A stretch of 64,000 nucleotides of DNA from Anaerolineales bacterium (GTDB lineage: Bacteria > Chloroflexota > Anaerolineae > Anaerolineales > UBA11579). The stretch lies in assembly GCA_035458505.1 (NCBI GenBank), contig DATHZS010000024.1, positions 23,296 through 87,295 on the forward strand, read 5' to 3'. This document shows, piece after piece, positions 1,433 through 56,350 of the stretch. Position 1 is the first letter of the stretch. Every line of letters begins with the position of its first letter. The notes beneath the pieces were generated by a model. That model saw nothing but the letters and a program-made list of their open reading frames with translations, did no database searches and was not told the DNA's origin. Position numbers and translations under genes: made by a program.

Positions 1433-1439
1433 GGTGTTT

Positions 1440-1940: not shown

Positions 1941-1943
1941 CCG

Positions 1944-2451: not shown

Positions 2452-2492
2452 AAAAATAAAAAACAGGGAACGGCTGTTCCCTGTTTTCCTTT
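2452..2492. terminator. Bidirectional intrinsic terminator between convergent genes
   Basis: Perfect 10-bp stem aacagggaac (2462-2471) / gttccctgtt (2476-2485) with loop ggct. An A-run lies upstream and a T-rich tract downstream. It sits between the stop at 2411 (+) and the stop at 2511 (-). Confidence 0.6.
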
Positions 2493-2510: not shown

Positions 2511-4034
2511 TTATTTCGCATAATCCACTGCCCGTGTTTCGCGCAGGACAGTGACTTTGATCTGACCGGGATACTGCATGGTTTCTTCGATCTGTTTGGC
2601 GATGTCTCTTGCCAGGCGGGTGGCGTCGAGGTCATCGATGTCCTCAGGACGGACAATAATGCGCACCTCTCGGCCGGCTTGCAGGGCGTAGCTCTGGGTG
2701 ACACCCTTGTAGGAATTGGCGAGTTCTTCCAGGCCGCGAACGCGCTTCAGGTATTGGTCCAGGCTCTCACGCCTTGCGCCAGGCCGGGCACCTGAAATTG
2801 CATCAGCAGCCTCGACTATCACTGCTTCAACGGATTCCTGTTCAACTTCGTGGTGGTGAGAGGCCATGGCATTCAAAACCAGATTGGGCACTTTGTACCG
2901 GGCAGCAAACTCGGCACCGATCTGCGCGTGGGTACCTTCCAGATTGTGATCCATCGCCTTCCCAAGGTCGTGGAGCAATCCGCCCATCTTGGCGATCTCT
3001 ACATCTGCCCCGAGTTCTGCGGCAATCACGGCGGCCAGCTTGGCTGTTTCAACGGCGTGGTCGAGTTGGTTCTGACCATAGGAGGTGCGGAATTTTAGCC
3101 GCCCCAACATTTTTGTAATCTCTTTGTGCAGGCTGGGAACTCCGGCTTCGAAGGCGGCCTCTTCTCCAGCCTCCTCGATGACCCGTTCGACTTCGCTGGT
3201 CTCCTTTTTCATGGTTTTTTCAATGCTGGCAGGATGGATGCGGCCATCGTTGACCAGTTTTTGCAGCGTGCGCCGGGCGATCTCTCTCCGGACAGGATCA
3301 AAACAGGAGATTGTGACTGCTTCGGGAGTGTCATCCACGATCACATCCACTCCAGCAGTGGCTTCAAAGGCACGGATGTTACGACCATTTCGGCCAATGA
3401 TCCGGCCTTTCATTTCATCCGATGGCAGGGATACCACCGAGGTGGTGATTTCGGATACGTGTTCCGAGGCGACACGCTGGATGGCAAGAGAGATCAGGTT
3501 TCGGGCGCGTTTTTCACCCTCTTCTCTGGCTTCTGCTTCTATCTGGCGCATCACACGGGCCATATCACCACGGGCTTCTTTTTCAACTTCTTCCAGGAGC
3601 ACTGTCCGGGCTTCATCGGTGGTCATATTTGACACTGTTTGTAATTTTTCCAACGCCTCGTTGTGAAAGGTGTCGATTTCATTCGCCCGGCGGTCCATCG
3701 AGCTCTGGCGTTTGTTGAGGCGCTGCTCTCTTTTCTCAATCCGATCGGTGAGGGAATCGAGTTCCGATCGTCTGCGCTGGAGGCGATCATCTTCCTTATT
3801 CAGCTCCTGTCGTCTGCGGTCTAGTTCCTCATCTACATTCTCTCGGATTTCAATCGCTCTGTTTTTTGCTTCTAGTTCGATTTCTCGGGCAGATTCCTTA
3901 GCAGCATTTACGATATGTCCTGCTTGGAGCTCTTCATTTTTAATTCTTTGCATGAGCATGTAATGCCGTATAAAATACCCGGCTGCTGCTCCAACTAAAG
4001 CAGCAATTCCAGCGATTAACATTGGGTTGTCCAT
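2511..4034 (-). CDS. rny: Ribonuclease Y
   Basis: 507 aa. N-terminal membrane helix, long charged coiled coil, KH motif GRIIGRNGRNIRAFE, and an HD domain (LLHDLGKA..HH). Confidence 0.95.
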   Translation of the reverse strand: MDNPMLIAGIAALVGAAAGYFIRHYMLMQRIKNEELQAGHIVNAAKESAREIELEAKNRAIEIRENVDEELDRRRQELNKEDDRLQRRRSELDSLTDRIEKREQRLNKRQSSMDRRANEIDTFHNEALEKLQTVSNMTTDEARTVLLEEVEKEARGDMARVMRQIEAEAREEGEKRARNLISLAIQRVASEHVSEITTSVVSLPSDEMKGRIIGRNGRNIRAFEATAGVDVIVDDTPEAVTISCFDPVRREIARRTLQKLVNDGRIHPASIEKTMKKETSEVERVIEEAGEEAAFEAGVPSLHKEITKMLGRLKFRTSYGQNQLDHAVETAKLAAVIAAELGADVEIAKMGGLLHDLGKAMDHNLEGTHAQIGAEFAARYKVPNLVLNAMASHHHEVEQESVEAVIVEAADAISGARPGARRESLDQYLKRVRGLEELANSYKGVTQSYALQAGREVRIIVRPEDIDDLDATRLARDIAKQIEETMQYPGQIKVTVLRETRAVDYAK

Positions 4035-4058: not shown

Positions 4059-4694
4059 TTATTGATCGGTCTGGGAATTGATCTCATCCCAAACCTTGGG
4101 CAGCACTTCGGATATGATCCCGTAGTGAAACCCGCGCCTGGCGAGGAAGCCATTCATTTTTTTTCTAAATTCCTGCCATTCCAGGCTTTGATAGCGGCGT
4201 GCTTTTTTTCGGGCAGCTTTGAGTGCCAGCGAATGATCGTCAATCTCATTTAGGACATTCGCAATCACCTGGTCTGGGATGCCCTTTTGCCGCAGCTCCA
4301 TTCGGAGAAGCTGCCCTCCCCGCGGGCGGAATTCAGAGCGGTTTTCTACCCACAGTTCGGCAAAATTTGCATCATCCACCAAGCCGCCTCTTTTCAAGCG
4401 GTCGATGATTTCATCGATCACCTGATCCGTATGGCCGTGTTTTGTAAGGTTCTGTCGCACTTCTTGTTCTGAGCGAACCCGGTAGCTCAGAAAATTCATC
4501 GCTCTCTGCAGCGCAATCTCGACATTGTCTTTTGAGAGCAGTTCGGCGATTTTCTCGTCACTCAGTTCTTGCCCGGTATGCAGCCAGGCTGCAACAATTT
4601 TGGACAAGCCGAAAGCGAATTCACCATCAAGATACACATTGACCCGGTTTTTGTTTCGTTTTTGTAGCTTCAATCCGGTGATCTTCTTCGCCAT
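4059..4694 (-). CDS. recX: RecA regulator RecX
   Basis: I chose the internal ATG at 4694 (MAKKITGLKLQKRNKNRVNVYLDGEFAFGLSK..), a typical RecX N-terminus; the track start at 4754 is a TTG. The helical-repeat C-terminus fits, and the gene lies directly downstream of recA. Confidence 0.85.
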   Translation of the reverse strand: MAKKITGLKLQKRNKNRVNVYLDGEFAFGLSKIVAAWLHTGQELSDEKIAELLSKDNVEIALQRAMNFLSYRVRSEQEVRQNLTKHGHTDQVIDEIIDRLKRGGLVDDANFAELWVENRSEFRPRGGQLLRMELRQKGIPDQVIANVLNEIDDHSLALKAARKKARRYQSLEWQEFRKKMNGFLARRGFHYGIISEVLPKVWDEINSQTDQ

Positions 4695-4714
4695 AGCTAT
4701 TATTAAATCAAATG

Positions 4715-4737
4715 CCGTGACACACATGCTGTCACGG
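4715..4737 (-). promoter_or_regulatory. Hairpin / inverted repeat about 20 nt upstream of the recX start
   Basis: Perfect 8-bp arms ccgtgaca (4715-4722) / tgtcacgg (4730-4737) with a 7-nt loop. On the minus strand it is followed by catttgatttaataat. Function unknown (attenuator, processing site or operator). Confidence 0.3.
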
Positions 4738-5031
4738 CTGGATACGATAACCAAAACTATAATCTGGTTCGATTGAATAACAGGTATTTACCTATGGCAA
4801 ACGAGACTCTTTACTGAGCTGCTGTAGCTATATTTTTTGTATTTGTTTGTCCCAGATAGTATCCCGAGTGAAATCTAGTTGCCTCTGGATGTTAGCTAAT
4901 TTGCCTTACTAAGGTTTTTAGTCAAGAAGCACTGTATGCTTCTCCTGGTAATTTCCTGAATATCTTATAATCGTATCAGTCGTGGCCGCGCTGTGGTCAA
5001 GAATGGATTGCGGCCGCTGGCTGGGAGTGGG

Positions 5032-6042
5032 CTAATCGTCTAAGGGCATGATGCCATCAGAGAGTGCTTTTTCTCGGATCGAGATCTCGATCTCCTCAGC
5101 CAATTCAGGGGTCTGGCGCAAATATTCTTTGGTGTTCTCGCGCCCTTGCCCTAATCTTATCTCGCCGTAATTGTAAAAAGAACCGCGTTTGTCAACGATC
5201 TGGAATTCTACGGCGAGGTCCAATATATCTCCATACTTGGAGATACCTTCATTATACATTATATCAAATTCTGCTGCACGAAATGGTGGAGCGACTTTGT
5301 TTTTCACAACTCGCACCCTTGTTCGGCTGCCGATGATATCGCTGCCGGCTTTGATGGATTGGATCCGGCGCACATCCAGTCGAATTGATGAATAGAATTT
5401 GAGCGCCATCCCACCAGTGGTTGTCTCCGGGTTGCCAAACATGACTCCGATTTTTTGCCGCAACTGGTTGGTGAAAATCACCGCGGTGTTGGTCTGTTTG
5501 ATCGCCCCTGAGAGCTTACGCAAGGCCTGGGACATCAGCCTGGCCTGTACGCCCATGGTGGCATCCCCCATATTGCCCTCCAATTCTGAACGCGGGACCA
5601 GGGCAGCCACAGAGTCGATTACCACGATATCTACTGCACCTGACCGGACCAGTGTTTCGGTGATTTCGAGGGCTTGTTCGCCCATATCCGGTTGAGAGAT
5701 GAGCAGATTGTCCACGTCCACCCCACAGCGTGCCGCGTAAGCAGGATCCAGGGCGTGCTCCATGTCGATGAAGGCCGCCTGGCCGCCCATTTTCTGTGCT
5801 TCGGCAACGATATGCTGGCAGATTGTTGTCTTACCGGAGGATTCCGGACCAAAAATTTCAGTGACACGGCCCCGCGGGATCCCTCCGATCCCAAGGGCTA
5901 AGTCTAACGATAATGAACCTGTAGGGATGGCAGCAACATGGAGGCTGTGGGCTTCTCCCAGCCGCATGATGGATCCATCTCCATACCGTTTGGTAATTTC
6001 CTTCAAAGCATTATCCAGTGCTTTGTGCTTTGCGTCATTCAT
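5032..6042 (-). CDS. recA: Recombinase RecA (paralog 1, short weakly acidic C-terminus)
   Basis: 336 aa. Walker [10 protein letters not shown], plus [50 protein letters not shown]. Followed by recX and rny on the same strand. Confidence 0.97.
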
Positions 6043-6331
6043 GTGCTGCGTTCCTTTCCATGCACAAATTCCTTCATGATTCTAATCGATTCTGAAAAAT
6101 TGTGGAGAATCTACCGAAGAACAAAATTGATCCACCATCTATTTGCGAACCCAAAGTGTCGTATTTTGATCGAACAAATCAACCCATTTTGTTGGTAGGG
6201 AAAATGGGCATTTCTTCCTTCCAGTTTATAGCCTGGCGAGAGCAAATCGTTTATAGTTAAGCGGTTTGAACCGATCTACATCTTTGTGCTAGATGTCCAG
6301 TTATCTGAAGGATTTGTTACGGAGGTAGCAG

Positions 6332-11115: not shown

Positions 11116-11586
11116 TTAGCTGATTGCGGCTGTTCGGGCATTTGTAATCTTGATCAGGTCTTTGGGCGAGAGTTCGATGTTCAACCCGCGCTGGCCTCCA
11201 GAGATGAATATAATGGGATGGGTCTTGGCGCTCTGGTCGATCACGATCTGGAAGCCTTTATTGATCAGAGACAGGGGAGAAATACCTCCGGTTTGCAGCC
11301 TGGTGAGGCCTTCAGCCTGTTGGTGCGTGGCCACCCGCACTTTTTTCTCATTGATCGCTTTGGCGAGCAGTTTCAGGTCTAGCTCTTTATTTCCTGGAAC
11401 CACTGCCAGAATTGGTTTACCGGGAGTTGTTCGGATTGCCACGATGGTCTTAAACACCAGTTCAGGGGATACTCCCAGGTGTTCGGCAGCCTCGGTTGCT
11501 CCGAGTTTTTCCGGGGGGAGTTCATGGGCGGTATAGGGTATTTTTTTCGCATCCAGCAACCGGGTTACATTATTGATGGTTGTCAT
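11116..11586 (-). CDS. ybaK: Cys-tRNA(Pro)/Cys-tRNA(Cys) deacylase YbaK
   Basis: 156 aa. YbaK/EbsC-family pattern (KTIVAIR.., LAVVPGNKELDLKLLAK, GGISPL, ISGGQRGLNIEL). The start ATG overlaps the kinase stop (ATGA at 11583-11586). Confidence 0.85.
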   Translation of the reverse strand: MTTINNVTRLLDAKKIPYTAHELPPEKLGATEAAEHLGVSPELVFKTIVAIRTTPGKPILAVVPGNKELDLKLLAKAINEKKVRVATHQQAEGLTRLQTGGISPLSLINKGFQIVIDQSAKTHPIIFISGGQRGLNIELSPKDLIKITNARTAAIS

Positions 11587-17019: not shown

Positions 17020-18627
17020 ATGAAACGGAGACCATTAGGATGCCTAACAACCGGGGGACTGATTGCATTTGTCGTCACACTGATCGTGGTTGGGACAAGT
17101 TTTGCCATAACTCGCAGTAGACTCTTCAGCCCGGGGCGGTTGAATGCGCAGGCATCTGGCCGGGAAATTGGCGGTGTGAGTTCCCACGCTGATCTTGAAA
17201 TGGATTGTGCTGCCTGCCATCCTGCACCCTGGGATGCTGCCAGGATGGCTGATCTCTGTGCAGACTGCCACCAGGAAGTTTTGGCTGAATTGGCTAACTT
17301 AAATTCACTCCATGGGGCCGTGATGGCTGAGATGGATGAGTTGAATTGCCGTCAGTGCCATACCGAGCATCATGGCGAGACAGCCAGCCTGACCAGATTT
17401 TTGGAGGGAGATTTCCCCCATGAATTGTTGGGGTATTCACTTCAGGCCCACAGCCGGGTAACCTGGGAACGGGAAATTGTTTGTAAAGATTGCCACCAAT
17501 CCGGGTTCACCAGCTTTGAGGTTGCAAATTGCACATCCTGCCATGAACAGTTGAGCCCTGAATTTATGACCGATCACATTTCCTTGTTCGGGAATGCCTG
17601 TCTGGATTGCCATGATGGAATAGAAACCTACGGGACCGATTTTGACCACAATCGTCTGGCCTTCAAGCTGGAATATCTGCACGCTTTCCTTAACTGTGCT
17701 GAGTGCCATGCCGGGGCTACTTCCATACAAATGCTCAAAGACACTCCGCAGGCATGCGAATCTTGTCATCAGAAAGACGATGTACATAGCGACCAGATGG
17801 GGAACCAATGTGGCGTTTGCCATACACCTAAAGGTTGGGAATTTGGCATTTTTGATCATGGAGCAACCGGATTCCTGTTGATCGGCGGACATGATAAGCT
17901 GGAATGTCTCAACTGCCACCAGGATACCACCTACCAAGGAATTGACCCGGCGTGTGTTACCTGCCATGCACAGGACGAACCGCATAATGGCCAGTTCGGT
18001 TTTGAATGCGGGGCCTGCCATACGATTGAAAGGTGGGACCAGATTGTCTTCGATCATTCAGGTACAATTGCAGAGAATTGCAACAGCTGTCACCTGGTAG
18101 ACCAGCCAGCGAACCATTATTCGGGGCAGTGTTCGGCTTGCCACAGCACGAATGCCTGGCTGCCTGCGACATTTGATCATAATGCGGCCGGGGCGACGGA
18201 CTGTATTTCCTGCCATAACGGCAACAAGCCTGCGAACCATTATTCGGGACAGTGTTCGGCCTGTCACAGCACGAGTGCCTGGCTGCCGGCGACCTTTGAT
18301 CACAGCGCGGCAGGGGCAACGGACTGCATTTCCTGCCACAGCGGGAACAAGCCAGCGAACCATTTCAGCGGCCAGTGTTCTACCTGCCATAATACGAATG
18401 CCTGGAAACCAGCGAGTTTTAGTCACTCTTTCCCGTTGAATCACGGCGGGGCCAACCAGCAGTGCCAGCTCTGTCATACCAACAATAACTACAACGCATA
18501 CACCTGCTATGACTGCCATGAGCATAACCAGGCCAAGATGCAGGAAGAGCATAGAGAAGTCAATAATTTCAGTAATAACTGCATTGCGTGCCATCCCGGT
18601 GGCCGAGAGGCCGAAGGGGATGATTAG
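17020..18627 (+). CDS. Membrane-anchored multihaem cytochrome c with 21 CxxCH motifs (paired-CXXCH repeat architecture)
   Basis: 535 aa. N-terminal hydrophobic anchor GGLIAFVVTLIVVGTSFAI. I counted 21 CxxCH motifs and 23 further His residues. The pattern CxxCH-x12-CxxCH..W..FDH recurs. Confidence 0.95.
   Translation: MKRRPLGCLTTGGLIAFVVTLIVVGTSFAITRSRLFSPGRLNAQASGREIGGVSSHADLEMDCAACHPAPWDAARMADLCADCHQEVLAELANLNSLHGAVMAEMDELNCRQCHTEHHGETASLTRFLEGDFPHELLGYSLQAHSRVTWEREIVCKDCHQSGFTSFEVANCTSCHEQLSPEFMTDHISLFGNACLDCHDGIETYGTDFDHNRLAFKLEYLHAFLNCAECHAGATSIQMLKDTPQACESCHQKDDVHSDQMGNQCGVCHTPKGWEFGIFDHGATGFLLIGGHDKLECLNCHQDTTYQGIDPACVTCHAQDEPHNGQFGFECGACHTIERWDQIVFDHSGTIAENCNSCHLVDQPANHYSGQCSACHSTNAWLPATFDHNAAGATDCISCHNGNKPANHYSGQCSACHSTSAWLPATFDHSAAGATDCISCHSGNKPANHFSGQCSTCHNTNAWKPASFSHSFPLNHGGANQQCQLCHTNNNYNAYTCYDCHEHNQAKMQEEHREVNNFSNNCIACHPGGREAEGDD
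18079..18432 (+). repeat. Three tandem ~123-bp (41-codon) repeat units inside the cytochrome gene
   Basis: Units start at 18079, 18202 and 18325. Each encodes C(N/I)SCH..(Q/K)PANH(Y/F)SGQCS(A/T)CH(S/N)T(N/S)AW(L/K)PA(T/S)F(D/S)H... Units 1 and 2 are near-identical at the nucleotide level; unit 3 is more diverged. Confidence 0.85.
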
Positions 18628-18706: not shown

Positions 18707-20746
18707 TTAGTTGTGCCCGGCAAGGATTTTGATCTTCTCCCACGGTTTGAGCGACTCGTCTTCCGCCAGGATCGAGCGCAGTTCGTAGATCTGGTCCCGC
18801 AGCATGGCCGCCTGCTCAAACTCAAGGGCTTTGGCAGCCTCTTTCATGCGTGCCTCGAGAGTTTCAATCATGTGTTCAAGTTCTGATTTGGGCATCTGGT
18901 GTGGTTTACCGGTTGTGTAAGCCGCGCCTTCCTCGGCAACGGCTGGCATTGTCACCCGGTCGGTCAGATCGCGGATCGCTTTGACAATGCTGACAGGTTC
19001 GATCCCGTGCTGCTGGTTGTATGCCACCTGTTTTTCGCGGCGGCGGTTAGTTTCCTCAATGGCCGCGTGCATCGCGTCGGTGACCTTATCGGCGTACATG
19101 ATCACTCTCCCACTGACATGTCGGGCGGCACGCCCAATCGTCTGGATCAGGGCGGTTTGGGAACGCAGGAAGCCTTGCTTGTCGGCATCCAGGATCGCCA
19201 CCAGGGAGACTTCCGGCAGATCCAAGCCTTCTCTCAGCAGGTTGATCCCCACGACTACATCGAAGACGCCCATGCGCAGGTCGCGTAAGATTCCGATCCG
19301 TTCCAGGGTATCGACTTCGGAGTGCAGGTAGTGGACTTTGATCCCCATTTCCATCAGGTAATCGGCGAGGTCCTCAGCCATGCGTTTGGTCAGGGTGGTG
19401 ACCAGGGTGCGTTCACCGATCTCAATGCGGGACCGGATCTCTCCAATCAGGTCATCGATCTGTCCTTCAACAGGGCGCACTTCCACCTGTGGATCAACCA
19501 GCCCGGTGGGGCGAATGACCTGATCGACCACCTGACTGGCGTGTTCCAGTTCATAGGGGCCGGGGGTGGCGGTAGTGTAGATCACCTGGCCGATGTATTG
19601 CTCAAACTCATCGAACTTGAGCGGGCGGTTGTCCATCGCGGAGGGCAGCCGGAATCCGTACTCCACCAGGGTAGATTTGCGCGACTGGTCGCCGTTATAC
19701 ATGCCGCGGATCTGGGGGACGGTCATGTGGGATTCGTCGATGAAGAGCAGGAAGTTTGGCGGGAAGTAGTCAATCAAGGTCCAGGGGTGCGTCCCGGCTG
19801 GGCGCTGGTCGAGATGGCGGGAATAGTTCTCCACCCCAGCACACGAACCGGTCTCGCGCAGCATTTCAAGGTCGTAGCGGGTGCGCTGCTCAAGCCGTTG
19901 CGCTTCCAGGTACATTTCGTTCTGTTTGAAGAAAGCCAGTTGCTCCTCCATTTCAGCCTCGATGGAGTTGAGGGCAGCCTGGAGTTTGTCCTCTTCTGTG
20001 ATGAAGTGTTTCGCCGGGAAGATGGAAACTTCGTCCAATTCTTCCTTGATCTCGCCTGTGAGCATGTTCATCACGACGATCCGCTCAACCTCATCACCGA
20101 AAAATGTAATGCGGTAGCCAGTTTTATCCTGGTATGCAGGGACAAGGTCCAGCGTATCACCGCGTACCCTGAAGCTGCCTGGAGCAAGGTCGATATCGTT
20201 CCGTGAGTAATGGATTTCAACCAGCCGCCGGAGTAAAAAGTTGCGCCGGATGGTCTCGCCGATCTTCAGGTTGATGACGACTTTTCCGTAGGCTTCCGGG
20301 TTTCCCAGGCCGTAGATGCAGGAAACTGAGGCAATGATGATCACATCTTTGCGGGACATGAGCGAGGTGGTGGCAGCCAGCCGGAGACGTTCGATCTCTT
20401 CGTTGATGTCGGTCTCTTTTTCAATGTACAGATCGCGGCGGGGGACGTAGGCCTCGGGTTGGTAATAATCATAGTACGAGGTGAAATATTCAACCGCGTT
20501 ATCCGGGAAGAACTCTTTGAACTCAGCATACAGCTGGGCGACGAGAGTCTTATTGTGGGCAATCACCAGGGCCGAGCGCTGGGTTTTCTGGATAATGTTC
20601 GCCATGGTAAAGGTTTTCCCTGTACCGGTTGCCCCGAGCAGCACCTGGTGCCGGTACCCTTGTTCCAAACCATCGACCAGGTGGGTGATTGCTTCTGGCT
20701 GGTCGCCAGTTGGTTTGTAAGGCGCTTGTAGGATAAATTCTTTCAT
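18707..20746 (-). CDS. uvrB: Excinuclease ABC subunit B
   Basis: 679 aa. [10 protein letters not shown] Walker A, helicase motifs, and the C-terminal UVR domain ([11 protein letters not shown]). Confidence 0.97.
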
Positions 20747-26552: not shown

Positions 26553-26721
26553 ATTCAGGCACTATAACGCGGGAAGATGGGGGTGTCAATACGCACTTCT
26601 TCCTGCTGGGATGGGGTATTCGAAGGAATTTGAGAGGGATGTTTGCATTTTGATTTGGTCTGCGCAATGAAAGAAAATCATGTATAGTGGGAATACTGAT
26701 CAAACTGTGGAGACACAACGG

Positions 26722-27420
26722 ATGAAAGAAGAAAGACTCAGCTACAGGATCATGGATTTGGACGAATCTGAGCGCCCCCGGGAGCGGCTGGCTCGCCTGG
26801 GTCCGTCTGCACTGACCAACGCTGAACTGATTGCGATTTTGCTGCGAGTAGGTGTTGAGGGTGAGAATGCGGTGCAGGTTGGGCAGCGCTTGCTGCAAAC
26901 CTTTGGCGGGATCAGGGGTCTGCACAAGGCTGATTTCTCTGAGGTTGTCCGTCAGCGCGGGGTAGGCAAGGCAAAGGTCGCAACGATCAAAGCAGCGATT
27001 GAATTGGGCAGGCGGTTGACCTTAGAATCCCCCGAAGAGCGGCCTTCGATCAACAGCCCGCAGGATGCTGCAAGTCTGGTTCAATTTGAAATGCAAGCCC
27101 TCGAAAAAGAACATCTGAGAGTGATCTTGCTCGATACCCGCAATCATGTGATCGAGGTGGCCGAGGTTTATCGAGGAACTCTGAATTCCTCTGTTGTGCG
27201 GGTTGGAGAGGTGTTTACCCCAGCGGTAAGGCGCAACGCGGCGAGTGTTTTGGTGGTTCACAATCATCCCAGCGGTGATCCATCACCAAGCCCGGAAGAT
27301 ATACGGATCACAAAAGAAATGGTGAGTGCAGGAAAATTGCTGCAGATTGAAGTTCTCGACCACCTTATTATTGGGCAGGGAAAATATGTTTCGCTCAAGG
27401 AACGTGGTCTGGGATTTTGA
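26722..27420 (+). CDS. radC: RadC-family JAB/MPN-domain protein
   Basis: I preferred the ATG at 26722 (MKEERLSYRIMDLDESERPRERL..), a typical RadC N-terminus; the track start is 26680. JAMM motif HNHPSGDPSPSPED. Confidence 0.88.
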   Translation: MKEERLSYRIMDLDESERPRERLARLGPSALTNAELIAILLRVGVEGENAVQVGQRLLQTFGGIRGLHKADFSEVVRQRGVGKAKVATIKAAIELGRRLTLESPEERPSINSPQDAASLVQFEMQALEKEHLRVILLDTRNHVIEVAEVYRGTLNSSVVRVGEVFTPAVRRNAASVLVVHNHPSGDPSPSPEDIRITKEMVSAGKLLQIEVLDHLIIGQGKYVSLKERGLGF

Positions 27421-37021: not shown

Positions 37022-37501
37022 TTATTTGATCGGGATGACCCGGCCTGCGGTCATTGTTTTTAGTTCCTGGGGAGTTAATGGGAACACGGCATTCGGCGTT
37101 CCGGCGGCAGACCAGATTTCATCATACTGAAAGAGATCCTCATCGATGAGCGTGGTGACCGGATTTGGATGACCGACAGGCGGAACACCGCCGATGGCGA
37201 ACCCAGTGCTTTCCCTGACGAAATCGGCATCTGCCTTTTTGATCCGCTCACCGAGTTCCCGGGCGATGGTTTTCTCATCCACACGGTTGGACCCGCTGGC
37301 AATGATCAGGACCGGTTTCTGGCTCACGGCAGTTTTAAAGACCAGGGTTTTGGCAATTTGTCCAAGGGTGCATCCAATCGCAGCCGCAGCATCCGCCGAA
37401 GTGCGGGTAGTGTTATCAAACTCGACAATGGTAAAGTCAAACCCCAAAGCAAGCACGGCTTGCTGAACTTTTTCTGCACTGGGTTTGAGGGGTTTGCTCA
37501 T
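37022..37501 (-). CDS. YbaK/EbsC/ProX-type aminoacyl-tRNA editing domain protein (second, divergent family member in the window)
   Basis: I preferred the ATG at 37501 (MSKPLKPSAEKVQQAV..); the track start at 37546 overlaps the upstream gene. KTLVFK, LIIASGSNRVDEKTIA, GGVPPVGH. Confidence 0.82.
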   Translation of the reverse strand: MSKPLKPSAEKVQQAVLALGFDFTIVEFDNTTRTSADAAAAIGCTLGQIAKTLVFKTAVSQKPVLIIASGSNRVDEKTIARELGERIKKADADFVRESTGFAIGGVPPVGHPNPVTTLIDEDLFQYDEIWSAAGTPNAVFPLTPQELKTMTAGRVIPIK

Positions 37502-37517
37502 TAAATCAATTACCCCG

Positions 37518-38114
37518 TTAGTTCTCTGGCTCAAAGTTTGGATCAACGATCACCTGGACAAAGAATTCATTCCCGAAGGGGTTTCCGTCCGGATCATGCG
37601 CCTGCCAGCTGCTGAAGGCCCGTCCGGCATCCGTGGGGGCTGTGAACAAAATCGAAATCTCGATTTGTTTGCCTGATACTGTTGGGCGCAGGGCGAGGAT
37701 GGTTGAGACTCCCATCGGCAGCCCATCTACGAGGCGCAGGGTGTAGTCGATCTCCCAATTGCAGGAGCCGCTGTTTTCCACCAGCCAGACCTTTTCGATC
37801 TCCTGGGCCGGAGCGACCACTGTATCGTCCGGGATGGTGATGTCATCCAGGAATGACAGGTCGTTTTCGCAGGCAGGCTCGTTGGTCGGTTCAGGTGTGA
37901 ATGTGGGCGTCGCGGCGGGGGTTGGCGTGGAGAGCTGTGGGCTCAGGGTTGGCGGAACAAAAAATTCCGGGGTGGAACGCGCATCTTGCTCTCCACAAGC
38001 GGAGAGCAAGATGGTCAGGGTCAATAAAATCAGGGTGGCGAAATGAATATTTGAGGTAGGTTTATTCCTCAAAATCCTCGTCCGTGAACTCCTCATCAAG
38101 TAAATCTTCTTCAT
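37518..38114 (-). CDS. Lipoprotein with a Pro/Thr linker and an NBR1-FW/Ig-like domain
   Basis: The track ORF (to 38342) runs far into recA. The plausible start is the ATG at 38114 (GGAGAA RBS 7 nt upstream), or alternatively 38096. Signal peptide with lipobox LTILLSAC. The domain [45 protein letters not shown] resembles bacterial NBR1-like domains, from memory. Confidence 0.7.
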
Positions 38115-39171
38115 TGATCTTCTCCACCATCGGTGGGGGAGCCTGGCCGTCCAGCAGTTCCTGCCGGATGATGCTCTCGACCTCAAAGGCGAGGTCGGGG
38201 TTGGCACGCAGGTAGTCTTTGGCGTTCTCACGTCCCTGGGCCAGGTTCTCTTCTCCGTAATAGTAGTACGAACCTCGTTTGTTAATGATATCCATCTCGA
38301 CGGCCAGGTCAAGCAAATCCCCGGCTCTTGAGATGCCTTCATTATACATGATGTCGAATTCTACCTGGCGGAATGGCGGTGCGACTTTGTTCTTGACCAC
38401 GCGGGCTTTGGTGCGGTTACCAACAATATCTCCGCCAACCTTGATCGACTGCATCCGGCGGATGTCAATGCGCACCGAGGAATAGAATTTCAGGGCCATG
38501 CCGCCGGTTGTGGTCTCCGGGTTGCCGAACATGATCCCGATCTTCTGGCGCAGCTGGTTGGTAAAGATAACGGCGGTATTGGTTTGCTTGATTGCACCGG
38601 AGAGCTTGCGCAGGGCCTGGGACATCAGGCGGGCCTGGACGCCCATCGTGGCATCACCCATATCGCCTTCAAGCTCGGAGCGGGGGACCAGGGCGGCTAC
38701 CGAGTCGATCACTACAATATCCACTGCACCTGAGCGCACCAGGGTTTCGGTGATCTCAAGTGCCTGTTCGCCCATATCGGGTTGGGAGATGAGCAGGTTG
38801 TCCACATCTACGCCGAGTCGGTTGGCATAGGCCGGGTCAAGCGCGTGTTCCATATCCACAAAAGCGGCTGTTCCGCCCATCTTTTGGGCTTCAGCGATAA
38901 TGTGCAAACATAGGGTGGTCTTTCCGGACGATTCCGGGCCGTAAATTTCGGTGACCCGCCCGCGCGGGATGCCGCCGACCCCTAATGCGATATCGAGGGA
39001 TAAACAACCTGTGGGGATCGCTTCGACCATCAGGCTGTGAGCTTCTCCCAGCTTCATGATGGCACCATCGCCAAACCGTTTGGTAATATCCCCGAGGGCT
39101 TTGTCCAGAGAGGCCTGACGTGCTTTGTCTATACCGTTCTCTGGAGGAGCAGAAGTCTTCTTTCGAGCCAT
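38062..39171 (-). CDS. recA: Recombinase RecA (paralog 2, N-terminal extension and long acidic C-terminal tail)
   Basis: ATG at 39171 with GGAGGT RBS 9 nt upstream. 369 aa. It has the same core motifs as paralog 1 ([42 protein letters not shown]). The tail reads ..[18 protein letters not shown]. Confidence 0.96.
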
Positions 39172-39217
39172 GTGATTAGTACCTCCAAATGTCAAGTTTT
39201 TTAATTTTCTATAGTTT

Positions 39218-39231
39218 AGCACAAGTGTTCT
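39218..39231. promoter_or_regulatory. SOS-box-like element upstream of recA paralog 2
   Basis: The minus strand reads AGAACACTTGTGCT, which is GAAC-N4-GTGC: one mismatch to GAAC-N4-GTTC. It lies 47-60 nt upstream of the ATG at 39171. Confidence 0.3.
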
Positions 39232-39361
39232 GATAGGGCAAGCAATTAATCAGGGAATTGTAAGGGCAATTTCCCTGATCTTTGTGGAAATCCTATCATC
39301 TTTTCATGATTGGTATGAAAGCTCATTTTCCACTTCACCAACCCTGTGAATTTGAACTAAA

Positions 39362-40429
39362 TCAATCGCTGTCCAGAAAGCTTTCAATGCTGGAGGGCGG
39401 CCCGGCGTTAGGTGTGAAATCGCTGAAACCCATCAGGCCGCGATAGCGGAAGTACGAGATCCTACCAGGGTGCACTTCCACGAACTGTTCGTACATATAG
39501 CCAAAATACGGGATCTGGATACGGTAATTTCCGGCTGGCAGGTCGCTGATGGCGAAGTTTTCGTTGTAATGCGGGTCTCCATTCACGGTTAAAATGGAGC
39601 CGTAGGATTTGCCACGCCATTCTTGTCCCGTATCCATGTTTGTGAGGATGACTTCCTGTTTCAGGAGCGGCTCCCCGATACCATCGGTCAGCCGGCCAAC
39701 AATCACGCCCCATCCCTGCGGCGGGGCGAGCCATAACTCCGGATTGAGCGTTTCATAAAAATTATTGGTGCCAACCCTCACCTCAAAATGCAAATGGGGA
39801 GCAGTGACCATCCCGGTACCTCCGGAGAGGGCGATCAGGTCCCCGGTTTCTACAAAGGCGCCTTTATCCACCAGGGTCTCAGAGAGGTGGGCATACAGTG
39901 TGTACAGGGGTTCATTGTTCCAGCCAAAGTCGTGTTCAATGGCGACGGCGAATCCATATGGGTCGTTTTGATTGTTATCTCCAAACAGCAGCCCTTTTCC
40001 AGACCAAATGACCTGGCCTGGTCCGGCAGCATACACCGGAGTGCCTTCACCAACCACGATGTCCACACCGGTATGGGGTGCATCAGGTGCAAAGAAGATC
40101 CCGCCGTAGCGGTAGGAAGATAGAGGCCAATTGACTTCGTCTGCTTTGACCGGTCGGACGAAATAAAAATGGTCATTCTCGCTCAATGCCCATGGTACGG
40201 GGTACAACGGTGGGCGCCAGGCTGATTTAGGATTGTTGGAGGCCTCGGGCAACGGGCTGCTCAATGGGTCGGGGAGCAGGGTGGGGGTTGACTCTGGCTC
40301 CTGGGCAGACCGGATTCCTGCCTGCGCAGGCTGGATGTTGATGCCAATAGCTGCGATGACGAGTGCGGCCACTGCGAAATAGCTCAGAATGAGGAGCAGC
40401 TGGGTACGATTTTTCATTCGAAACCTCAA
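39362..40429 (-). CDS. Membrane-anchored M23 metallopeptidase with a C-terminal carboxypeptidase-regulatory-like beta domain
   Basis: 355 aa. N-terminal anchor, HTGVDI and APHLHFEV M23 motifs, and a C-terminal GVIVGRLTD..GEPL.. beta-sandwich-like segment. The start overlaps the upstream stop (40426-40429). Confidence 0.88.
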   Translation of the reverse strand: MRFRMKNRTQLLLILSYFAVAALVIAAIGINIQPAQAGIRSAQEPESTPTLLPDPLSSPLPEASNNPKSAWRPPLYPVPWALSENDHFYFVRPVKADEVNWPLSSYRYGGIFFAPDAPHTGVDIVVGEGTPVYAAGPGQVIWSGKGLLFGDNNQNDPYGFAVAIEHDFGWNNEPLYTLYAHLSETLVDKGAFVETGDLIALSGGTGMVTAPHLHFEVRVGTNNFYETLNPELWLAPPQGWGVIVGRLTDGIGEPLLKQEVILTNMDTGQEWRGKSYGSILTVNGDPHYNENFAISDLPAGNYRIQIPYFGYMYEQFVEVHPGRISYFRYRGLMGFSDFTPNAGPPSSIESFLDSD

Positions 40430-42270
40430 GGCGTTCCCTGGCTTTGAAAAACTTCCGGCGGCCAGATCTGAAGCATAGCATCTTCCCAGGTGAGGCCAGA
40501 AGTGATCGCGAACACATTAAAACGCGCCGCCTGATAGTAGCTCTGCCAGTTGGACAGCGCAGATTGGCGTTCCCAGCCATATTCCAGCGCCAGGGTGGTG
40601 AAATCTACCCAATAACCGGTTGGAATTTCTGAGAGCTGCTCACCGCCCGACTCGTAGGCAGATGGCGACCCTGAATAACGGGCGTCAAAATCCCACAGGA
40701 ACTGGCTCAGCGGCCTCCCTTGATTTCCCGATTGATCCAGCGGTTTTAGATATACACGCCAATAGATTTCTGAACCATACTCCTCCCGCACAACAGCCAT
40801 GTATTCGTAATCTATCAGCACCGGGTTGAGCGCAAATGCCCGACCGGTGTACAGCCAGTCATTGGACCGGCCGGGGGGCAGAGGTTCGGAGATCGACACG
40901 AACATATTCTCCAGGTCGGATAGAACATCCCAACCCAGCGCGAGGATCAACCGATCTTTTAGCGCAAAGAACGGCTCAATAGCCAGAGCGCTGAGTGCCG
41001 GATGAGGCGCTTTGATGTCCGGAAGGTCGATTATGTTTTGCCTGCCGTACAGTGCACCCGTGCTGGGGACGAGCTGATTTTTCCAGGGGGTCTGGGGCTG
41101 AGCCTGAGCAGCCTGTTTAAGTTCGCCGGGCAGAACACTGGGAAGCAGATTTTGCCCCCAACTGACCTCCTCAATCATCCCCGGGAACAGGGTGGGCAGA
41201 ATGATGTAGTGATAATCCCGGCTGTCCCGGATAGAGAGGTAATATCGGTCAAGCGTATTCTGAACGGATACGATGTAGTTCCCAAAAGGATCGTAGTCAA
41301 ACAGGTTGGCGTTGATCGAAGGTGTGGACAGGGCAGCTTCCTGAGTACTCTCCGAAGAGAATAAAGTCGGGTATCCTGACACCGGTTCAGTCCAGACGAT
41401 CCGGCTGCCGTCAGGTGTCCAGGCAGGGAGGGTTTGGTTGACAGTACGGTTGATGGTGTAATTTTGATCCGATCCGGGTTGGTTGGTATCGAGGAGATAA
41501 ATATCCTGACTGCCGGTTCGGGTAGACGTAAAGGCGATCGTCGTGCTGCCTGGTTGCCAGGCAGGCTGGAAATCCTGTGCAGGATGGGTCGTCATCCGGG
41601 TTTCCGGGATGTCTGCCACCACCGGTTTGATGAAGATATCCAGATTGCTGTCCTGATACTTGTCATATGCCAGCCAGAGACCATCAGAAGACCAGGCTGG
41701 ATGTCCGTTGTAATCCAGATCATCGGTGAATTGAGTGGTTTCTCCGGTGGTTAGATCAAGGAGGTAGAGATCCCAGTGACCAGAACGGTTGGAGGTGAAG
41801 GCGATCTGAGTACCATCGGGGCTGATTGCCGGTTGCAGGTCATCCCACTCACCGTAGGTCAGCCGGGTGATGGGGAGAGTTTCCGGGTGGTAGGCAAACA
41901 GGTGGAAGTATCCGGCTTCGCTCATCGAAAATACGATCAGACCCGGAAGAGTGCCATTGGTAGCAGGTGGGAGGGTCGGGATCTCAGGCTGCGTAACGAC
42001 CATTTGGGTGGGCGTAGGAGTTGAAATGGGCAGGGCGGAAGGTGTGGGTTCTTCGGTAACGGCCTGGGTGCTGACCTGGGTAGGGTTGGCCGCCCCTGGC
42101 AATAGAGCATCCAGGTATCCGGCCTGCCAGCTCAGAAAACCGAAACCAGCCATGATGAAAAGTAAAAATACAGAGAATCCAAGTGGAGAGAATGACACTC
42201 TCCGGCGTTTTTTGTTATTTTTTTCAGATTGTTGTGTCGCAGCCATTGTTTGGATTAAACCATAAAACAT
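40426..42270 (-). CDS. Membrane-anchored TolB-like PD40 beta-propeller protein with an uncharacterised C-terminal domain
   Basis: 614 aa (an alternative start is the ATG at 42246). TM anchor, Pro/Thr linker, PD40 repeats (ISPDGTQIAFTSNRSGHWDLYLLD, PAWSSDGLWLAY, PAWQPGSTTIAFTS, PAWTPDGSRIVW), then ~250 aa of unknown domain. Confidence 0.8.
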   Translation of the reverse strand: MFYGLIQTMAATQQSEKNNKKRRRVSFSPLGFSVFLLFIMAGFGFLSWQAGYLDALLPGAANPTQVSTQAVTEEPTPSALPISTPTPTQMVVTQPEIPTLPPATNGTLPGLIVFSMSEAGYFHLFAYHPETLPITRLTYGEWDDLQPAISPDGTQIAFTSNRSGHWDLYLLDLTTGETTQFTDDLDYNGHPAWSSDGLWLAYDKYQDSNLDIFIKPVVADIPETRMTTHPAQDFQPAWQPGSTTIAFTSTRTGSQDIYLLDTNQPGSDQNYTINRTVNQTLPAWTPDGSRIVWTEPVSGYPTLFSSESTQEAALSTPSINANLFDYDPFGNYIVSVQNTLDRYYLSIRDSRDYHYIILPTLFPGMIEEVSWGQNLLPSVLPGELKQAAQAQPQTPWKNQLVPSTGALYGRQNIIDLPDIKAPHPALSALAIEPFFALKDRLILALGWDVLSDLENMFVSISEPLPPGRSNDWLYTGRAFALNPVLIDYEYMAVVREEYGSEIYWRVYLKPLDQSGNQGRPLSQFLWDFDARYSGSPSAYESGGEQLSEIPTGYWVDFTTLALEYGWERQSALSNWQSYYQAARFNVFAITSGLTWEDAMLQIWPPEVFQSQGTP

Positions 42271-49686: not shown

Positions 49687-50103
49687 TTAGGGAGTGGGGT
49701 TCATGTCAAGGTAAGATTGAAGGATGACCGCTGCGGCCGTGTCATCCAGGTGCCCCATCCGGCGGCTCCGGCTGGCACCGGACTTGATTTTTCCCTGGCG
49801 CGCTTGCTGGGTGCTGAAGCTTTCATCCCATAATTCAACAGGAAGGTCTGACAATGATCTGATCTCGGCTGCCAGGCGGGCGGCTTTGCGGCCGGAAAAA
49901 TTCGGTTTCCCATCCAGATCTGTGGCTTGCCCGATGACGATTTTCTCTGCTTCTTCTGCCTGGGCAAGATCCAGGATTTTTTCAGCATCTTTACGGCGTT
50001 GGGTATGGGCGATGACAGATAAAGGCCGCGCCAGGGTGCCTGTTGGATCGCTGATCGCGATGCCGATATTTTTTTCGCCGGGATCAATTCCTAAAATGCG
50101 CAA
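49687..50103 (-). CDS. ruvX: Putative pre-16S rRNA nuclease / Holliday junction resolvase-like YqgF
   Basis: 138 aa. TTG start. MRILGIDPGEKNIGIAISD signature. Confidence 0.92.
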   Translation of the reverse strand: MRILGIDPGEKNIGIAISDPTGTLARPLSVIAHTQRRKDAEKILDLAQAEEAEKIVIGQATDLDGKPNFSGRKAARLAAEIRSLSDLPVELWDESFSTQQARQGKIKSGASRSRRMGHLDDTAAAVILQSYLDMNPTP

Positions 50104-50104
50104 T

Positions 50105-51619
50105 TTAGCCGTCCTGGTGGAGGTCGATGGCCTGTATTCTGAACTCGAGCAGGGGCAAGATCGGCCACCACTCTGGGAACGTGGAGATGTCCGGTCTGGA
50201 TGACAGGTTCATCTCTGTTTGGAGGATTTTTGCAGCCTCTTCAGGTGACTGGCCCCGGATCTGTTTCACAGCCTGGGGCAGTTTTTCTACCGTGAAGATT
50301 TGTCTGGTAAGTTCAACTTCCCAGGCAACCTGTTCCTCATCGTCTATCACTGGTTTTGAGAGAGATACGATCTCGAAGGTTTGGGGTTGAGCATTGTAGC
50401 CAGGCGATAAACTCACATCCAGGATGGCATTCCCCATGGCTTGCAGTTCGTTCCACTCCAGGTACATGATCTCGTACTCGACGCGCAGGATCAGGGTCAG
50501 TGTTGAGCTGGGTTGAGGTTCTGCAGGTGAAAAATTCTCCTCCAGAATGACCACTTTCCGGGGGCTGGAATCCAGGATAACATCTTTCTCTTCCAGAGTG
50601 GAGGCGGCTTCATCCAGGGCAGTTTGCCACAAAGATGCTAGCAGGTCTTCGGAGAGGGTCTGGTAATCTTCCAAAGCCGGAGCTGGGCTCAGGCGCTGGC
50701 TGCCACCCCGGGTGGGGTCAGGGTTAGTAACAGTCAGAGTGCGCGCCAGATCTCCTTCAATGATCGCCAAAGAGTTGGCAGGGAGGTTTCCCAGAGGGCC
50801 CGGGTTGGCAGCCTCGACTGGCACATTGGTGGATGCCCCTGATTCTGGGCTTAGAGTGGCTTCACTGGTAGTGGTAAAACGGATCGACGAGGTAGAATCA
50901 GCCGTTCGGACGACAGTCCCGGTCGGAACGGTGACCTCCTGGTTGGTTAAGTTAGTAAAAATGACGATCCCGGTTGCCGGGCTATCAGGAATGCCGGTTT
51001 CGCCAGAAGACTCAATCTCCCCGCGTCCTTCCACCGTGACGGATAGGTGGTGGGCCGGAATTGCTCCTGAAAGGTTGAAAGCTGGATACTCTGGATTGGC
51101 AGAAATGCTGAGAGGGAGATTTTGCGTTTCAACTGATGGGAGGTATCTGATCTGGGCACCAGGAACAATGAAAATGACCAGGGCCAGGACAGATAGTATA
51201 CTGACGGCGAAAGCAGAAATCCGGGCAGGTTTGGATTGTGTCCAGGCAGATTCTGGAGTTCCCCTGACAAGTTCGGCCAATTGCTCGCGGGTACGCGTAT
51301 GCTCAGGCTTTTGCGGTAACCGGGAAGGGGATAGGGAGTATTCCCAAGGCACTCGCTGAGCCTGCCGAAGCGAACGGAAAACCGGAATGCCCAGTTCATA
51401 GGCAAAATCGAGAATCTGGCGTTTTTTGCAGACCAGAGCCAACTTAATATCCGCGGCCTGGCAGCGACGGTGAATCAGCTTGAGGTCTAATTTACTCTCG
51501 AGCGGGGTTCCGCGCAACGGCCAGGTGATGATTACCCGATCGGCTTGCCCCCAGTTGAGCTTGTCCAGCACCGAGTGGCGGTCGTCGAAAGATTCCAGAT
51601 GCACAATTTGAGTTTTCAC
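50105..51619 (-). CDS. Single-pass membrane protein: small cytoplasmic N-domain plus an external region resembling baseplate J / gp47-like proteins
   Basis: 504 aa. GTG start 5 nt after the alaS stop. TM helix ISAFAVSILSVLALVIFIV. The segment GIVIFTNLTNQEVTVPTGTVV..VPVEAANPGPLGNLPANSLAIIEGDL..VTNPDPTRGG resembles the Baseplate_J core, from memory. The family call is tentative. Confidence 0.5.
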   Translation of the reverse strand: MKTQIVHLESFDDRHSVLDKLNWGQADRVIITWPLRGTPLESKLDLKLIHRRCQAADIKLALVCKKRQILDFAYELGIPVFRSLRQAQRVPWEYSLSPSRLPQKPEHTRTREQLAELVRGTPESAWTQSKPARISAFAVSILSVLALVIFIVPGAQIRYLPSVETQNLPLSISANPEYPAFNLSGAIPAHHLSVTVEGRGEIESSGETGIPDSPATGIVIFTNLTNQEVTVPTGTVVRTADSTSSIRFTTTSEATLSPESGASTNVPVEAANPGPLGNLPANSLAIIEGDLARTLTVTNPDPTRGGSQRLSPAPALEDYQTLSEDLLASLWQTALDEAASTLEEKDVILDSSPRKVVILEENFSPAEPQPSSTLTLILRVEYEIMYLEWNELQAMGNAILDVSLSPGYNAQPQTFEIVSLSKPVIDDEEQVAWEVELTRQIFTVEKLPQAVKQIRGQSPEEAAKILQTEMNLSSRPDISTFPEWWPILPLLEFRIQAIDLHQDG

Positions 51620-55697: not shown

Positions 55698-56249
55698 TCA
55701 GGCCAGAATGATACTTTCGTGTTTGAGCAGGGCGATTTTGCGCTCACTGCCCATGACACCACCGTAGCCTCCGAGTGTACCATCTGCATTCAGCACGCGA
55801 TGACATGGAATTATAATCGGAATTGGGTTCCTGCGCAGCACCTGGCCGATAGCTCTTGAGGCGTTTGGTTTGTCGATCGCTTCTGCAATCTCACCATAGG
55901 TCGTGGTGGCTCCGAAAGGGATGTTGCGTACGAAGTATAAGATCTGCTGTTGAAATTCTGTCAGCGCTGACAGGTCCAGGCTGAGGTCTCCCGGGATCGG
56001 TTTTTTCTTTTCACAGTATTCTTTCAGGGCAGTCAGGTAAGGAGTTGTTTTCTGTGGGTTGTGGATGATGTTTGGTTGGTGCTGCCGGTCCAAGGATTTA
56101 GCCAGGCTGGTGATAAATCTGACCACATCTTCATCAAAACGAAGGGTGGAAAGGCCGTCATCCGTTGCGGCCAGCCAAATTGGTCCCAAAACCTCAGTTT
56201 CAAATTCCGAATAATATAGCGTTAATCCCTGGTTTTTGTTTTGATCCAT
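55698..56249 (-). CDS. ogt: Methylated-DNA--protein-cysteine methyltransferase
   Basis: I preferred the ATG at 56249 (MDQNKNQGLT..). Active site IPCHRV, with YGEIA and RAIGQVLRRNP. Confidence 0.9.
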   Translation of the reverse strand: MDQNKNQGLTLYYSEFETEVLGPIWLAATDDGLSTLRFDEDVVRFITSLAKSLDRQHQPNIIHNPQKTTPYLTALKEYCEKKKPIPGDLSLDLSALTEFQQQILYFVRNIPFGATTTYGEIAEAIDKPNASRAIGQVLRRNPIPIIIPCHRVLNADGTLGGYGGVMGSERKIALLKHESIILA

Positions 56250-56350
56250 TTTCAAATCCTTTCCCGGGTTGTCATAATCACTGCCGGGGTCGAACCAGCT
56301 TGGAATCAATCGATTTTATTTTTTTTTCTATGAACAGTGTACTCTCTATC

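Follow-up and report, generated by a model that had tools for sequence, protein, structure and literature searches.

The 64,000-nt window of genomic DNA analyzed here, taken from Anaerolineales bacterium (UBA11579; GCA_035458505.1, contig DATHZS010000024.1, positions 23,296-87,295 of the forward strand), carries two recA genes, recA-1 and recA-2. Both are intact and under equal constraint, they are located on the same contig and are conserved in a second species, and their promoter motifs, termini and operon partners differ. A genome normally has one recA gene, and recA serves as a single-copy marker. The two genes probably encode functional but differently wired RecA paralogs, of which RecA-2 would be LexA-repressed and self-inhibited and RecA-1 LexA-independent and coupled to RecX; LexA binding, damage inducibility, the effects of the protein tails and the split of labor are inferred from sequence motifs and from analogy with characterized RecA proteins.

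Two intact and conserved recA paralogs

Judged by profile, structure and motif matches, both products are bona fide RecA proteins with intact catalytic motifs. RecA-2 scores 543.8 bits and RecA-1 544.3 bits against the TIGR02012 RecA equivalog model, for which the curated cutoff is 325.3 (NCBIfam). Matches of RecA-2 to solved RecA structures reach ~1e-132 to 1e-135 for single-chain entries and E = 0 for fused multimers, and its alignment to E. coli RecA structures spans residues 12-341. Walker A (GPESSGKT), Walker B (IVVID), E96, L1, L2, F217, K248/K250 and K286 (E. coli numbering) are present in both copies, and the sole changes between the copies within these motifs are N/D in L1 and V/I in L2.

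An end-to-end BLASTP alignment of the two proteins contains 266 identities in 333 positions (80%), 67 differences and one 1-residue gap. The estimate made by eye in the initial annotation (~57 differences over ~315 positions) was somewhat low against these 67. Without the termini, 59 differences remain over 320 columns. The differences are enriched toward the termini, with 9/26 in the N-terminal helix and 23/58 in the C-terminal domain compared to 27/236 in the core. A stretch of ~115 residues with only two substitutions had also been reported, and it corresponds to a central stretch of 113 residues with exactly two (N/D and V/I). At the DNA level, 28% of aligned bases differ (72% identical), which is more than the one base in five originally claimed. 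The accompanying claim of a third-position bias holds, as differences at codon positions 1/2/3 number 55/33/196 (69% at third positions). Nei-Gojobori estimates for the gene pair are a proportion of synonymous differences (pS) of 0.74, which is saturated, a nonsynonymous divergence (dN) of 0.154 and a ratio to synonymous divergence (dN/dS) of ~0.05. Within the 113-residue core, the proportion of nonsynonymous differences (pN) is 0.016 but pS is 0.67, so the sameness of the core is kept at the protein level and does not come from recent copying. The same core pS excludes recent gene conversion between the two copies.

The linkage of the two genes is reproduced in other assemblies. Both are located on one contig in NCBI JBFFQJ010000024.1 (metagenome-assembled genome (MAG) GCA_041573535.1, 44 kb), where they encode exactly the same proteins and have the same start-to-start distance of 33,129 bp as in the window. 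They also occur together on JGI contig Ga0451564_012612 (40.5 kb) at a spacing of 33,042 bp, and this 87-bp difference in length identifies an independent assembly from a slightly different strain. Two full-length recA genes are thus found on the same contig in three assemblies, the window included. A second MAG, GCA_975956415.1, is ~10% diverged and encodes an ortholog of RecA-1 (P0126, 90% identical) and an ortholog of RecA-2 (P0010, 90%) on two contigs, each in its matching context; the identity between the paralogs within this MAG is 78.6%.

These observations make it most improbable that assembly or binning has joined the recA genes of two related organisms in one contig. The source is a MAG, conserved genes such as recA are able to seed chimeric joins, and the G and C content at third codon positions (GC3) is unlike in the two copies (0.58 versus 0.68). 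However, the 33.1-kb arrangement recurs in JBFFQJ010000024.1 and Ga0451564_012612, which speaks against the mis-join that the initial annotation had raised as an objection to the pair. Orthologs of both copies are present in the second MAG, each copy has its own, individually conserved context, and base composition is even along the window.

Comparison of the window with GCA_975956415.1 yields a dN of 0.065 for RecA-1 and 0.062 for RecA-2 with dS >1.6, whereas the same species comparison yields a dN of 0.087 for rny (encoding RNase Y) and 0.36 for the gene of an M23 peptidase. Both copies are under equal and strong constraint, and paralog divergence is ~2.4x the species divergence. The purifying selection proposed earlier is therefore well founded (dN/dS ~0.05; dN of ~0.06 between orthologs versus 0.15 between paralogs), and neither copy shows the relaxation to a dN/dS near 1 that would have spoken against it. 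The proposal that the paralogs are old also holds in that synonymous sites are saturated between them, but their age is not datable because pS (0.5-0.8) is already saturated between orthologs.

Wider searches recover relatives of each copy. RecA-2 orthologs have 87-99% identity and conserved synteny, while RecA-1 orthologs have 82-94% identity and recX-rny adjoining every time. A further probable RecA pair (P0006 and P0125) was found in JGI metagenome 3300038436. The proteins P0154 and P0036 were considered as a co-resident pair and set aside, since they belong to different MAGs and carry no information on co-occurrence. For a closed 4.4 Mb contig with a RecA-2 ortholog (P0014), no protein from the contig is present among the RecA-1 relatives listed or among the RNase Y search matches. 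In the species-representative genome collection queried with RecA-2, none of the matches listed exceeds 80% identity and no genome appears twice among them.

It is likewise highly improbable that one copy is a recent horizontal passenger without a role in its host. Extra recA copies can come with mobile elements and the deep RecA phylogeny is poorly supported, but the closest relatives of both copies are Anaerolineales proteins, and neither copy groups outside this order, let alone within the distant phylum that the initial annotation had named as a sign of acquisition. Each copy occupies a syntenic chromosomal context that is common to distant relatives, constraint is equal between species, synonymous sites are saturated between the copies, and no mobile-element genes flank either copy in the window. 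At one RecA-2 ortholog locus (L091), a Y1 transposase fragment is located ~3 kb upstream. By these measures, neither recA copy looks foreign.

Two recA locus types in Anaerolineae

To place the copies in context, 80 recA loci were compared, drawn from the species-representative genome collection (among the matches listed) and from individual look-ups. By gene order, recA loci across Anaerolineae fall into two types, with one window copy in each, a framework that is new here. Type A loci have the gene order (ABC-ABC-) PD40/TolB-like, M23 peptidase, recA, NBR1-like lipoprotein (-YbaK), and include Anaerolinea thermolimosa, Bellilinea, the complete genome CP070639.1 and all loci of the RecA-2 clade (R2). 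Type B loci have the order (maeB |) recA-recX-rny, and include Caldilineaceae and Promineifilaceae MAGs, the complete genome CP075527.1 and all loci of the RecA-1 clade (R1). The loci with a single type (A in Anaerolinea thermolimosa and Bellilinea, B in the Caldilineaceae and Promineifilaceae MAGs) have the same neighbors, termini and promoter motif as the matching window copy. Among the sampled loci these genomes have one type each, whereas the window lineage has both.

Protein architecture follows locus context. The N-terminal extension has a median of 18 residues (net +3) in the RecA-2 clade and 21 in other type A proteins, and the tail has a median of 36 residues (13 acidic) in the RecA-2 clade and 23 (7 acidic) in other type A proteins; the window lineage thus differs from other type A RecAs in its longer tail. 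In type B, including the RecA-1 clade, the corresponding medians are ~5-6 residues for the extension and 12-16 for the tail, with 3-4 acidic residues. The RecA-2 of the window has 13 acidic residues among the 31 of its tail, counted from the tail sequence, and the recA-2 start codon at 39171 has a conserved GGAGG upstream and fits the MARK... starts of homologs. The N-terminal extension and long acidic tail described in the initial annotation are accordingly real. Its description of RecA-1 is also accurate, in that the protein has a short, weakly acidic tail ending in ..DGIMPLDD and its gene is followed by both recX and rny. The view of RecA-2 as the odd copy is not upheld. By these features RecA-2 is the usual Anaerolineales form, with extension and acidic tail, the latter exaggerated, and RecA-1 is the short form that accompanies recX-rny in other orders of the class.

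The last 53 nt of recA-2 (38062-38114, minus strand), which consist of acidic-tail codons, also form the beginning of the NBR1-like gene in another frame. Overlaps of 26-53 nt between recA and the NBR1-like gene occur in long-tailed R2-clade loci only, and there is none in L099. This restricted distribution suggests that the RecA-2 acidic tail lengthened by growth into the adjoining gene.

A LexA-type box at the recA-2 promoter

The predicted recA-2 promoter reads TTGCCC-TATCA-GAACACTTGTGC-TAAACT, in which the LexA-type (Cheo-like) box GAACACTTGTGC (GAAC-N4-GTGC) is embedded between the -35 and -10 hexamers (Table 1). A search for GAAC-N4-GTTC-like boxes with no more than one mismatch within 200 nt upstream of recA finds a GAAC-N4-GT[GAT]C box at 38/43 type A loci and at 2/25 type B loci (Fisher p = 3e-11). 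The chance expectation at this stringency is estimated at ~8% per 200 nt, which fits the count for type B. Type A promoters share the layout TTGACA-N4-GAACAnnTGT(G/A)C-TAtAcT (box GAACAnnTGTGC), in which the dyad occupies the spacer and directly adjoins the -10 element, and the boxes are always located between TTGACA-like and TAnAnT hexamers. In the RecA-2 ortholog loci L182 and L085, the box and the -10 element are identical to those of the window. In Firmicutes and Actinobacteria, LexA recognizes the motif GAAC-N4-GTTC, variants of which have been described for Chloroflexi (PMC4951493), and on the strength of this motif the recA-2 box probably functions as a LexA operator.

Two other box-like sequences were noted. 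The deeper R2-clade locus L095 (GCA_024710875.1, ~5960-6000) has a degenerate box, GAACAGATGCGC, in its promoter spacer and, directly past the -10 element, another box in inverted orientation, GCACATCTGTTC; the two may form a tandem operator arrangement. A perfect GAACGGCTGTTC at 2468-2479 of the window was rejected as an operator, as it is the stem of the rny terminator and is not in a promoter.

Probable RecX coupling at recA-1

No LexA-type box was found by motif scan in the recA-1 upstream region, where a AATCGATTAGAAT block and a GAAAGGAA ribosome-binding site are conserved in the R1 clade. The gene is followed on the same strand by recX, an arrangement that is kept in all R1-clade loci examined, and recX adjoins RecA-1 only and not RecA-2. 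RecX is an inhibitor of RecA filaments. The recX product has the Pfam RecX_N/HTH1-3 domains, and its best match among the NCBIfam RecX models (E = 1.5e-46) is below the curated cutoffs. Together with rny, the two genes form a predicted recA-1/recX/rny operon. The earlier suggestion that the copies are probably regulated differently gains direct sequence-level support from these features, as the LexA-type box is predicted at the RecA-2 promoter only and recX-rny coupling at RecA-1 only.

The unusually long spacer between recA-1 and recX was analyzed for conservation over five R1-clade loci. A conserved GC-rich hairpin (GGCCGC/GCGGCC) directly follows the recA-1 stop codon, and a second conserved hairpin with a T-run (4714-4738), a terminator-like match, immediately precedes the recX ATG. 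The spacer also includes a conserved block, GTTTGCCATAGGTAAATACCTG, and possibly an internal block that resembles a promoter. Rfam gives no match to an RNA family in the whole window, the spacer included. The spacer hairpin is a candidate attenuator that could limit RecX relative to RecA-1.

Origin of the two copies

In a neighbor-joining tree of 305 sequences, the RecA-1 clade (66 sequences, short termini, type B) is sister to the RecA-2 clade (66 sequences, long termini, type A) inside Anaerolineales. Bootstrap analysis (200 replicates) recovers an exclusive R1+R2 clade in 3/200 replicates, R1 as monophyletic in 70% and R2 in 50%, with poor support for deep nodes. The signal for this sister grouping comes from the core. 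In residues 107-219, the R1-R2 distance is 0.089, compared to 0.08 within clades and 0.13 to other Anaerolineales, while in the N- and C-terminal regions R1 and R2 are no closer to each other than either clade is to other lineages. The core of RecA-1 is 2 residues (of 113) from the co-resident RecA-2 and 7 from its own orthologs.

Simple duplication within the family is unlikely, since both contexts are old and widespread outside it, and ancient paralogy with later homogenization or co-constraint of the core fits better. The recA-recX-rny block of RecA-1 would then be the ancestral setting. In the most explicit form of this scenario, which is regarded as possible, both loci are ancient, with type B ancestral and type A dating from near the base of Anaerolineales, and no duplication took place within the family; the cores would have been kept alike through ancient gene conversion or through selection common to both, such as a need for co-polymerization. 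The wide distribution of both contexts implies that both sites were occupied before the family arose, and the sister position of R1 and R2 in the tree point estimate, the near within-clade core distance that the termini do not share, and the 2-versus-7 residue comparison are all in its favor. Nevertheless, the exclusive R1+R2 grouping is rare among bootstrap replicates, the core residue counts are small, and the core pS equals the ortholog level, so that a conversion tract is neither visible nor datable. As a separate check for segmental duplication, the two YbaK/tRNA-editing-domain genes, of which each is at most a few kb from one recA (11116-11586 and 37022-37501, both on the minus strand), were compared; they are only 24% identical, and this origin was rejected.

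Proposed division of labor

The near-absence of the LexA-type box from type B loci and its presence at type A loci suggest that RecA-2 is probably SOS-inducible and RecA-1 probably LexA-independent. In the proposed mechanism, the operator between the -35 and -10 elements would render recA-2 LexA-repressed and damage-induced. In E. coli and Klebsiella, the acidic tail of RecA acts against filament formation, DNA binding and strand exchange, and it stimulates LexA cleavage and strengthens the interaction with RecX (PMC13076628). By analogy, the long acidic tail of RecA-2 would restrain filament formation and strand exchange and favor LexA cleavage, such that RecA-2 could serve as the damage-inducible, self-inhibited, SOS-signaling copy and a good co-protease. 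RecA-1, with no LexA-type box and almost no acidic tail, would be a recombinase with less self-inhibition, the expression of which would not depend on LexA and the activity of which would be held in check in trans by the co-encoded RecX. The dose of RecX would possibly be trimmed in turn by the hairpin in the recA-1/recX spacer.

Several points weigh against this assignment of roles. The recA-2 box is one mismatch from a perfect dyad, and it overlaps a TGn extended -10 element, so that its conservation could partly reflect constraint on the promoter and not on an operator. Near-matches to GAAC-N4-GTTC occur across the whole window only at chance frequency, the uvrB promoter in the window has no full box but just a GTTC half-site beside its TATAAT -10 element, and lexA was not found within the 64 kb window. 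Clade-diagnostic substitutions between R1 and R2 number only 5 in 320 aligned columns, with R2 derived at 4/5, and the biochemical divergence of the two proteins may therefore be small. Because the tail enhances RecX interaction (PMC13076628), the nearly tail-less RecA-1 could be less, not more, sensitive to RecX. Finally, the division of labor in Myxococcus xanthus departed from simple expectations, as its RecA2 has lost strand exchange and LexA cleavage in vitro despite its conserved motifs (PMC7029660); by this precedent, predictions of the present kind may prove wrong in their details.

The Myxococcus precedent also raises the prospect that one copy has left recombination and is now mainly a regulator or stress factor, which is considered quite unlikely here. 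The derived state of the R2 clade at most diagnostic sites and its exaggerated tail would be compatible with such a change. In opposition, the window paralogs are 80% identical compared to 64.6% in Myxococcus, the core is near-identical, and all catalytic and DNA-binding residues are kept. In addition, the RecA-2 architecture is the sole RecA form seen at type A loci, including those of the cultured Anaerolinea and Bellilinea. If genomes with only type A loci carry a single recA, the RecA-2 form must perform recombination in them.

A further reading is that the two RecAs form a co-adapted pair and are not independent enzymes. The cores would be kept near-identical within each genome, either by selection for co-polymerization or by episodic conversion confined to this part of the genes, while termini and promoters diverge, and damage-induced, tail-inhibited RecA-2 would mix into RecA-1 filaments to tune recombination versus SOS signaling. 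This reading is considered unlikely; if true, the pair would be a bacterial counterpart of recombinase paralog partnerships.

Feature coordinates and other genes in the window

The features of both loci are listed in Table 1 together with other genes in the window. The recA-2 leader and its conserved element were defined from an alignment of R2-clade upstream regions. The M23 peptidase and NBR1-like (PF16158) genes are the conserved upstream and downstream neighbors of type A recA, and the latter is assigned by Pfam in L081-L084. Two NADP-malic enzyme genes (malic and PTA_PTB domains), 76% identical to each other, are arranged in tandem and divergently to recA-1; R1-clade loci L094 and L183 have such a tandem as well, and one copy is present in L092 and L097. 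A gene for a multiheme c-type cytochrome (Cytochrome_C7/c3, MtrC-like domain) has a related multiheme gene near the recA-1 locus in L094. The window further contains the DNA-repair genes uvrB, radC, ruvX and ogt and two of the DinB_2 family. An open reading frame (ORF) between alaS and ruvX encodes a weak Baseplate_J-like domain (E = 3.6e-9) and is not obviously prophage.

Table 1. Positions of features in the 64,000-nt window
Feature	Position	Strand	Description
DinB_2-family genes	1374-2411	+	Two genes, convergent with rny
Bidirectional terminator	2458-2489		Strong, 14-bp stem including perfect GAACGGCTGTTC; between rny and convergent DinB_2 gene
rny	2511..4034	-	RNase Y; last gene of recA-1/recX/rny block
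recX	4059..4694	-	211 aa from ATGGCGAAG; start set by alignment
recA-1/recX spacer	4695..5031	-	~335 nt
recA-1	5032..6042	-	ORF, 336 aa; without N-terminal extension; 11-residue weakly acidic tail; type B locus
recA-1 upstream region	6043..6110	-	Promoter-like TCCACA-16-TAGAAT (6106-6079)
NADP-malic enzyme genes	6332-8581, 8770-11025	+	Tandem
Multiheme cytochrome gene	17020-18627	+	535 aa
uvrB	18707-20746	-	DNA repair
radC	26680-27420	+	DNA repair
NBR1-like lipoprotein gene	37518..38114	-	PF16158
recA-2	38062..39171	-	ORF, 369 aa from ATG; 18-residue basic N-terminal extension; 31-residue acidic tail; type A locus
recA-2 leader	39172..39212	-	Conserved ACTTGACATTTGGAGGTAC element including ribosome-binding site
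recA-2 promoter with embedded LexA-type operator	39213..39241	-	Predicted
recA-2 -10 element	39218-39213	-	TAAACT
recA-2 LexA-type box	39230-39219	-	GAACACTTGTGC
recA-2 -35 element	39241-39236	-	TTGCCC
M23 peptidase gene	39362..40417	-	
PD40/TolB-like gene	40426-42270		Upstream of M23 peptidase at recA-2 locus
ruvX	49687-50103	-	DNA repair
Baseplate_J-like ORF	50105-51619	-	504 aa
ogt	55698-56309	-	Methylguanine methyltransferase; DNA repair

Comparison with known duplicate recA genes

Retained duplicates of recA are few, and the only ones studied are those of Myxococcus xanthus and Bacillus megaterium (PMC7029660). A full-text literature search of limited coverage found no report of a recA pair for Chloroflexota or Anaerolineae. 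The window pair is a real case of this rare but already known kind of duplication, to which it adds the framework of two locus types, a putative operator on one copy only, and a natural separation of tail length and RecX coupling. As Anaerolineae recA occurs in two locus types, finding two recA genes in a MAG of this lineage should not be taken as a sign of contamination.

The closest likeness is to RecA1 (MXAN_1441) and RecA2 (MXAN_1388) of Myxococcus xanthus, which are also encoded by two full-length recA genes that are conserved in relatives, with the ATPase core kept and the N- and C-terminal parts divergent (PMC7029660). The Myxococcus copies differ in damage induction and function (PMC7029660), while for the window pair such a difference is predicted only, from the box and the tails. 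The Myxococcus proteins are also less similar to one another, at 64.6% compared to 80% identity in the window, where 113 residues of the core are near-identical. Unlike that pair, the two genes of the window are divided by locus type (recX-rny versus M23/NBR1-like) and by the LexA-type box and belong to the phylum Chloroflexota. Bacillus megaterium likewise has a duplicate recA, and its LexA recognizes GAAC-N4-GTTC (Nahrstedt et al. 2005, as cited in PMC7029660). According to the account given there, both of its copies are damage-inducible, whereas here the box is present on one copy only.

The two proteins can also be compared to engineered and single-copy RecA. RecA-1 is like a naturally short-tailed RecA, comparable to the tail-deletion variants of the E. 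coli and Klebsiella proteins (RecA deltaC17 and similar), and the counterpart of RecA-2 would be a self-inhibited RecA with a long tail (PMC13076628). The location of recX downstream of recA with a hairpin between them is found in many bacteria (PMC13076628) and at recA-1. In E. coli and Klebsiella one gene fills both roles, whereas here two genes with two promoters are present, to which the tail effects are extrapolated. The pair would thus constitute a natural experiment, in which the SOS-controlled promoter and the autoinhibitory tail that are combined in one E. coli gene appear to be apportioned between two near-identical proteins, one of them tied to RecX. As these devices are split between two proteins, it becomes possible to test separately what LexA control, RecX and the tail each contribute.

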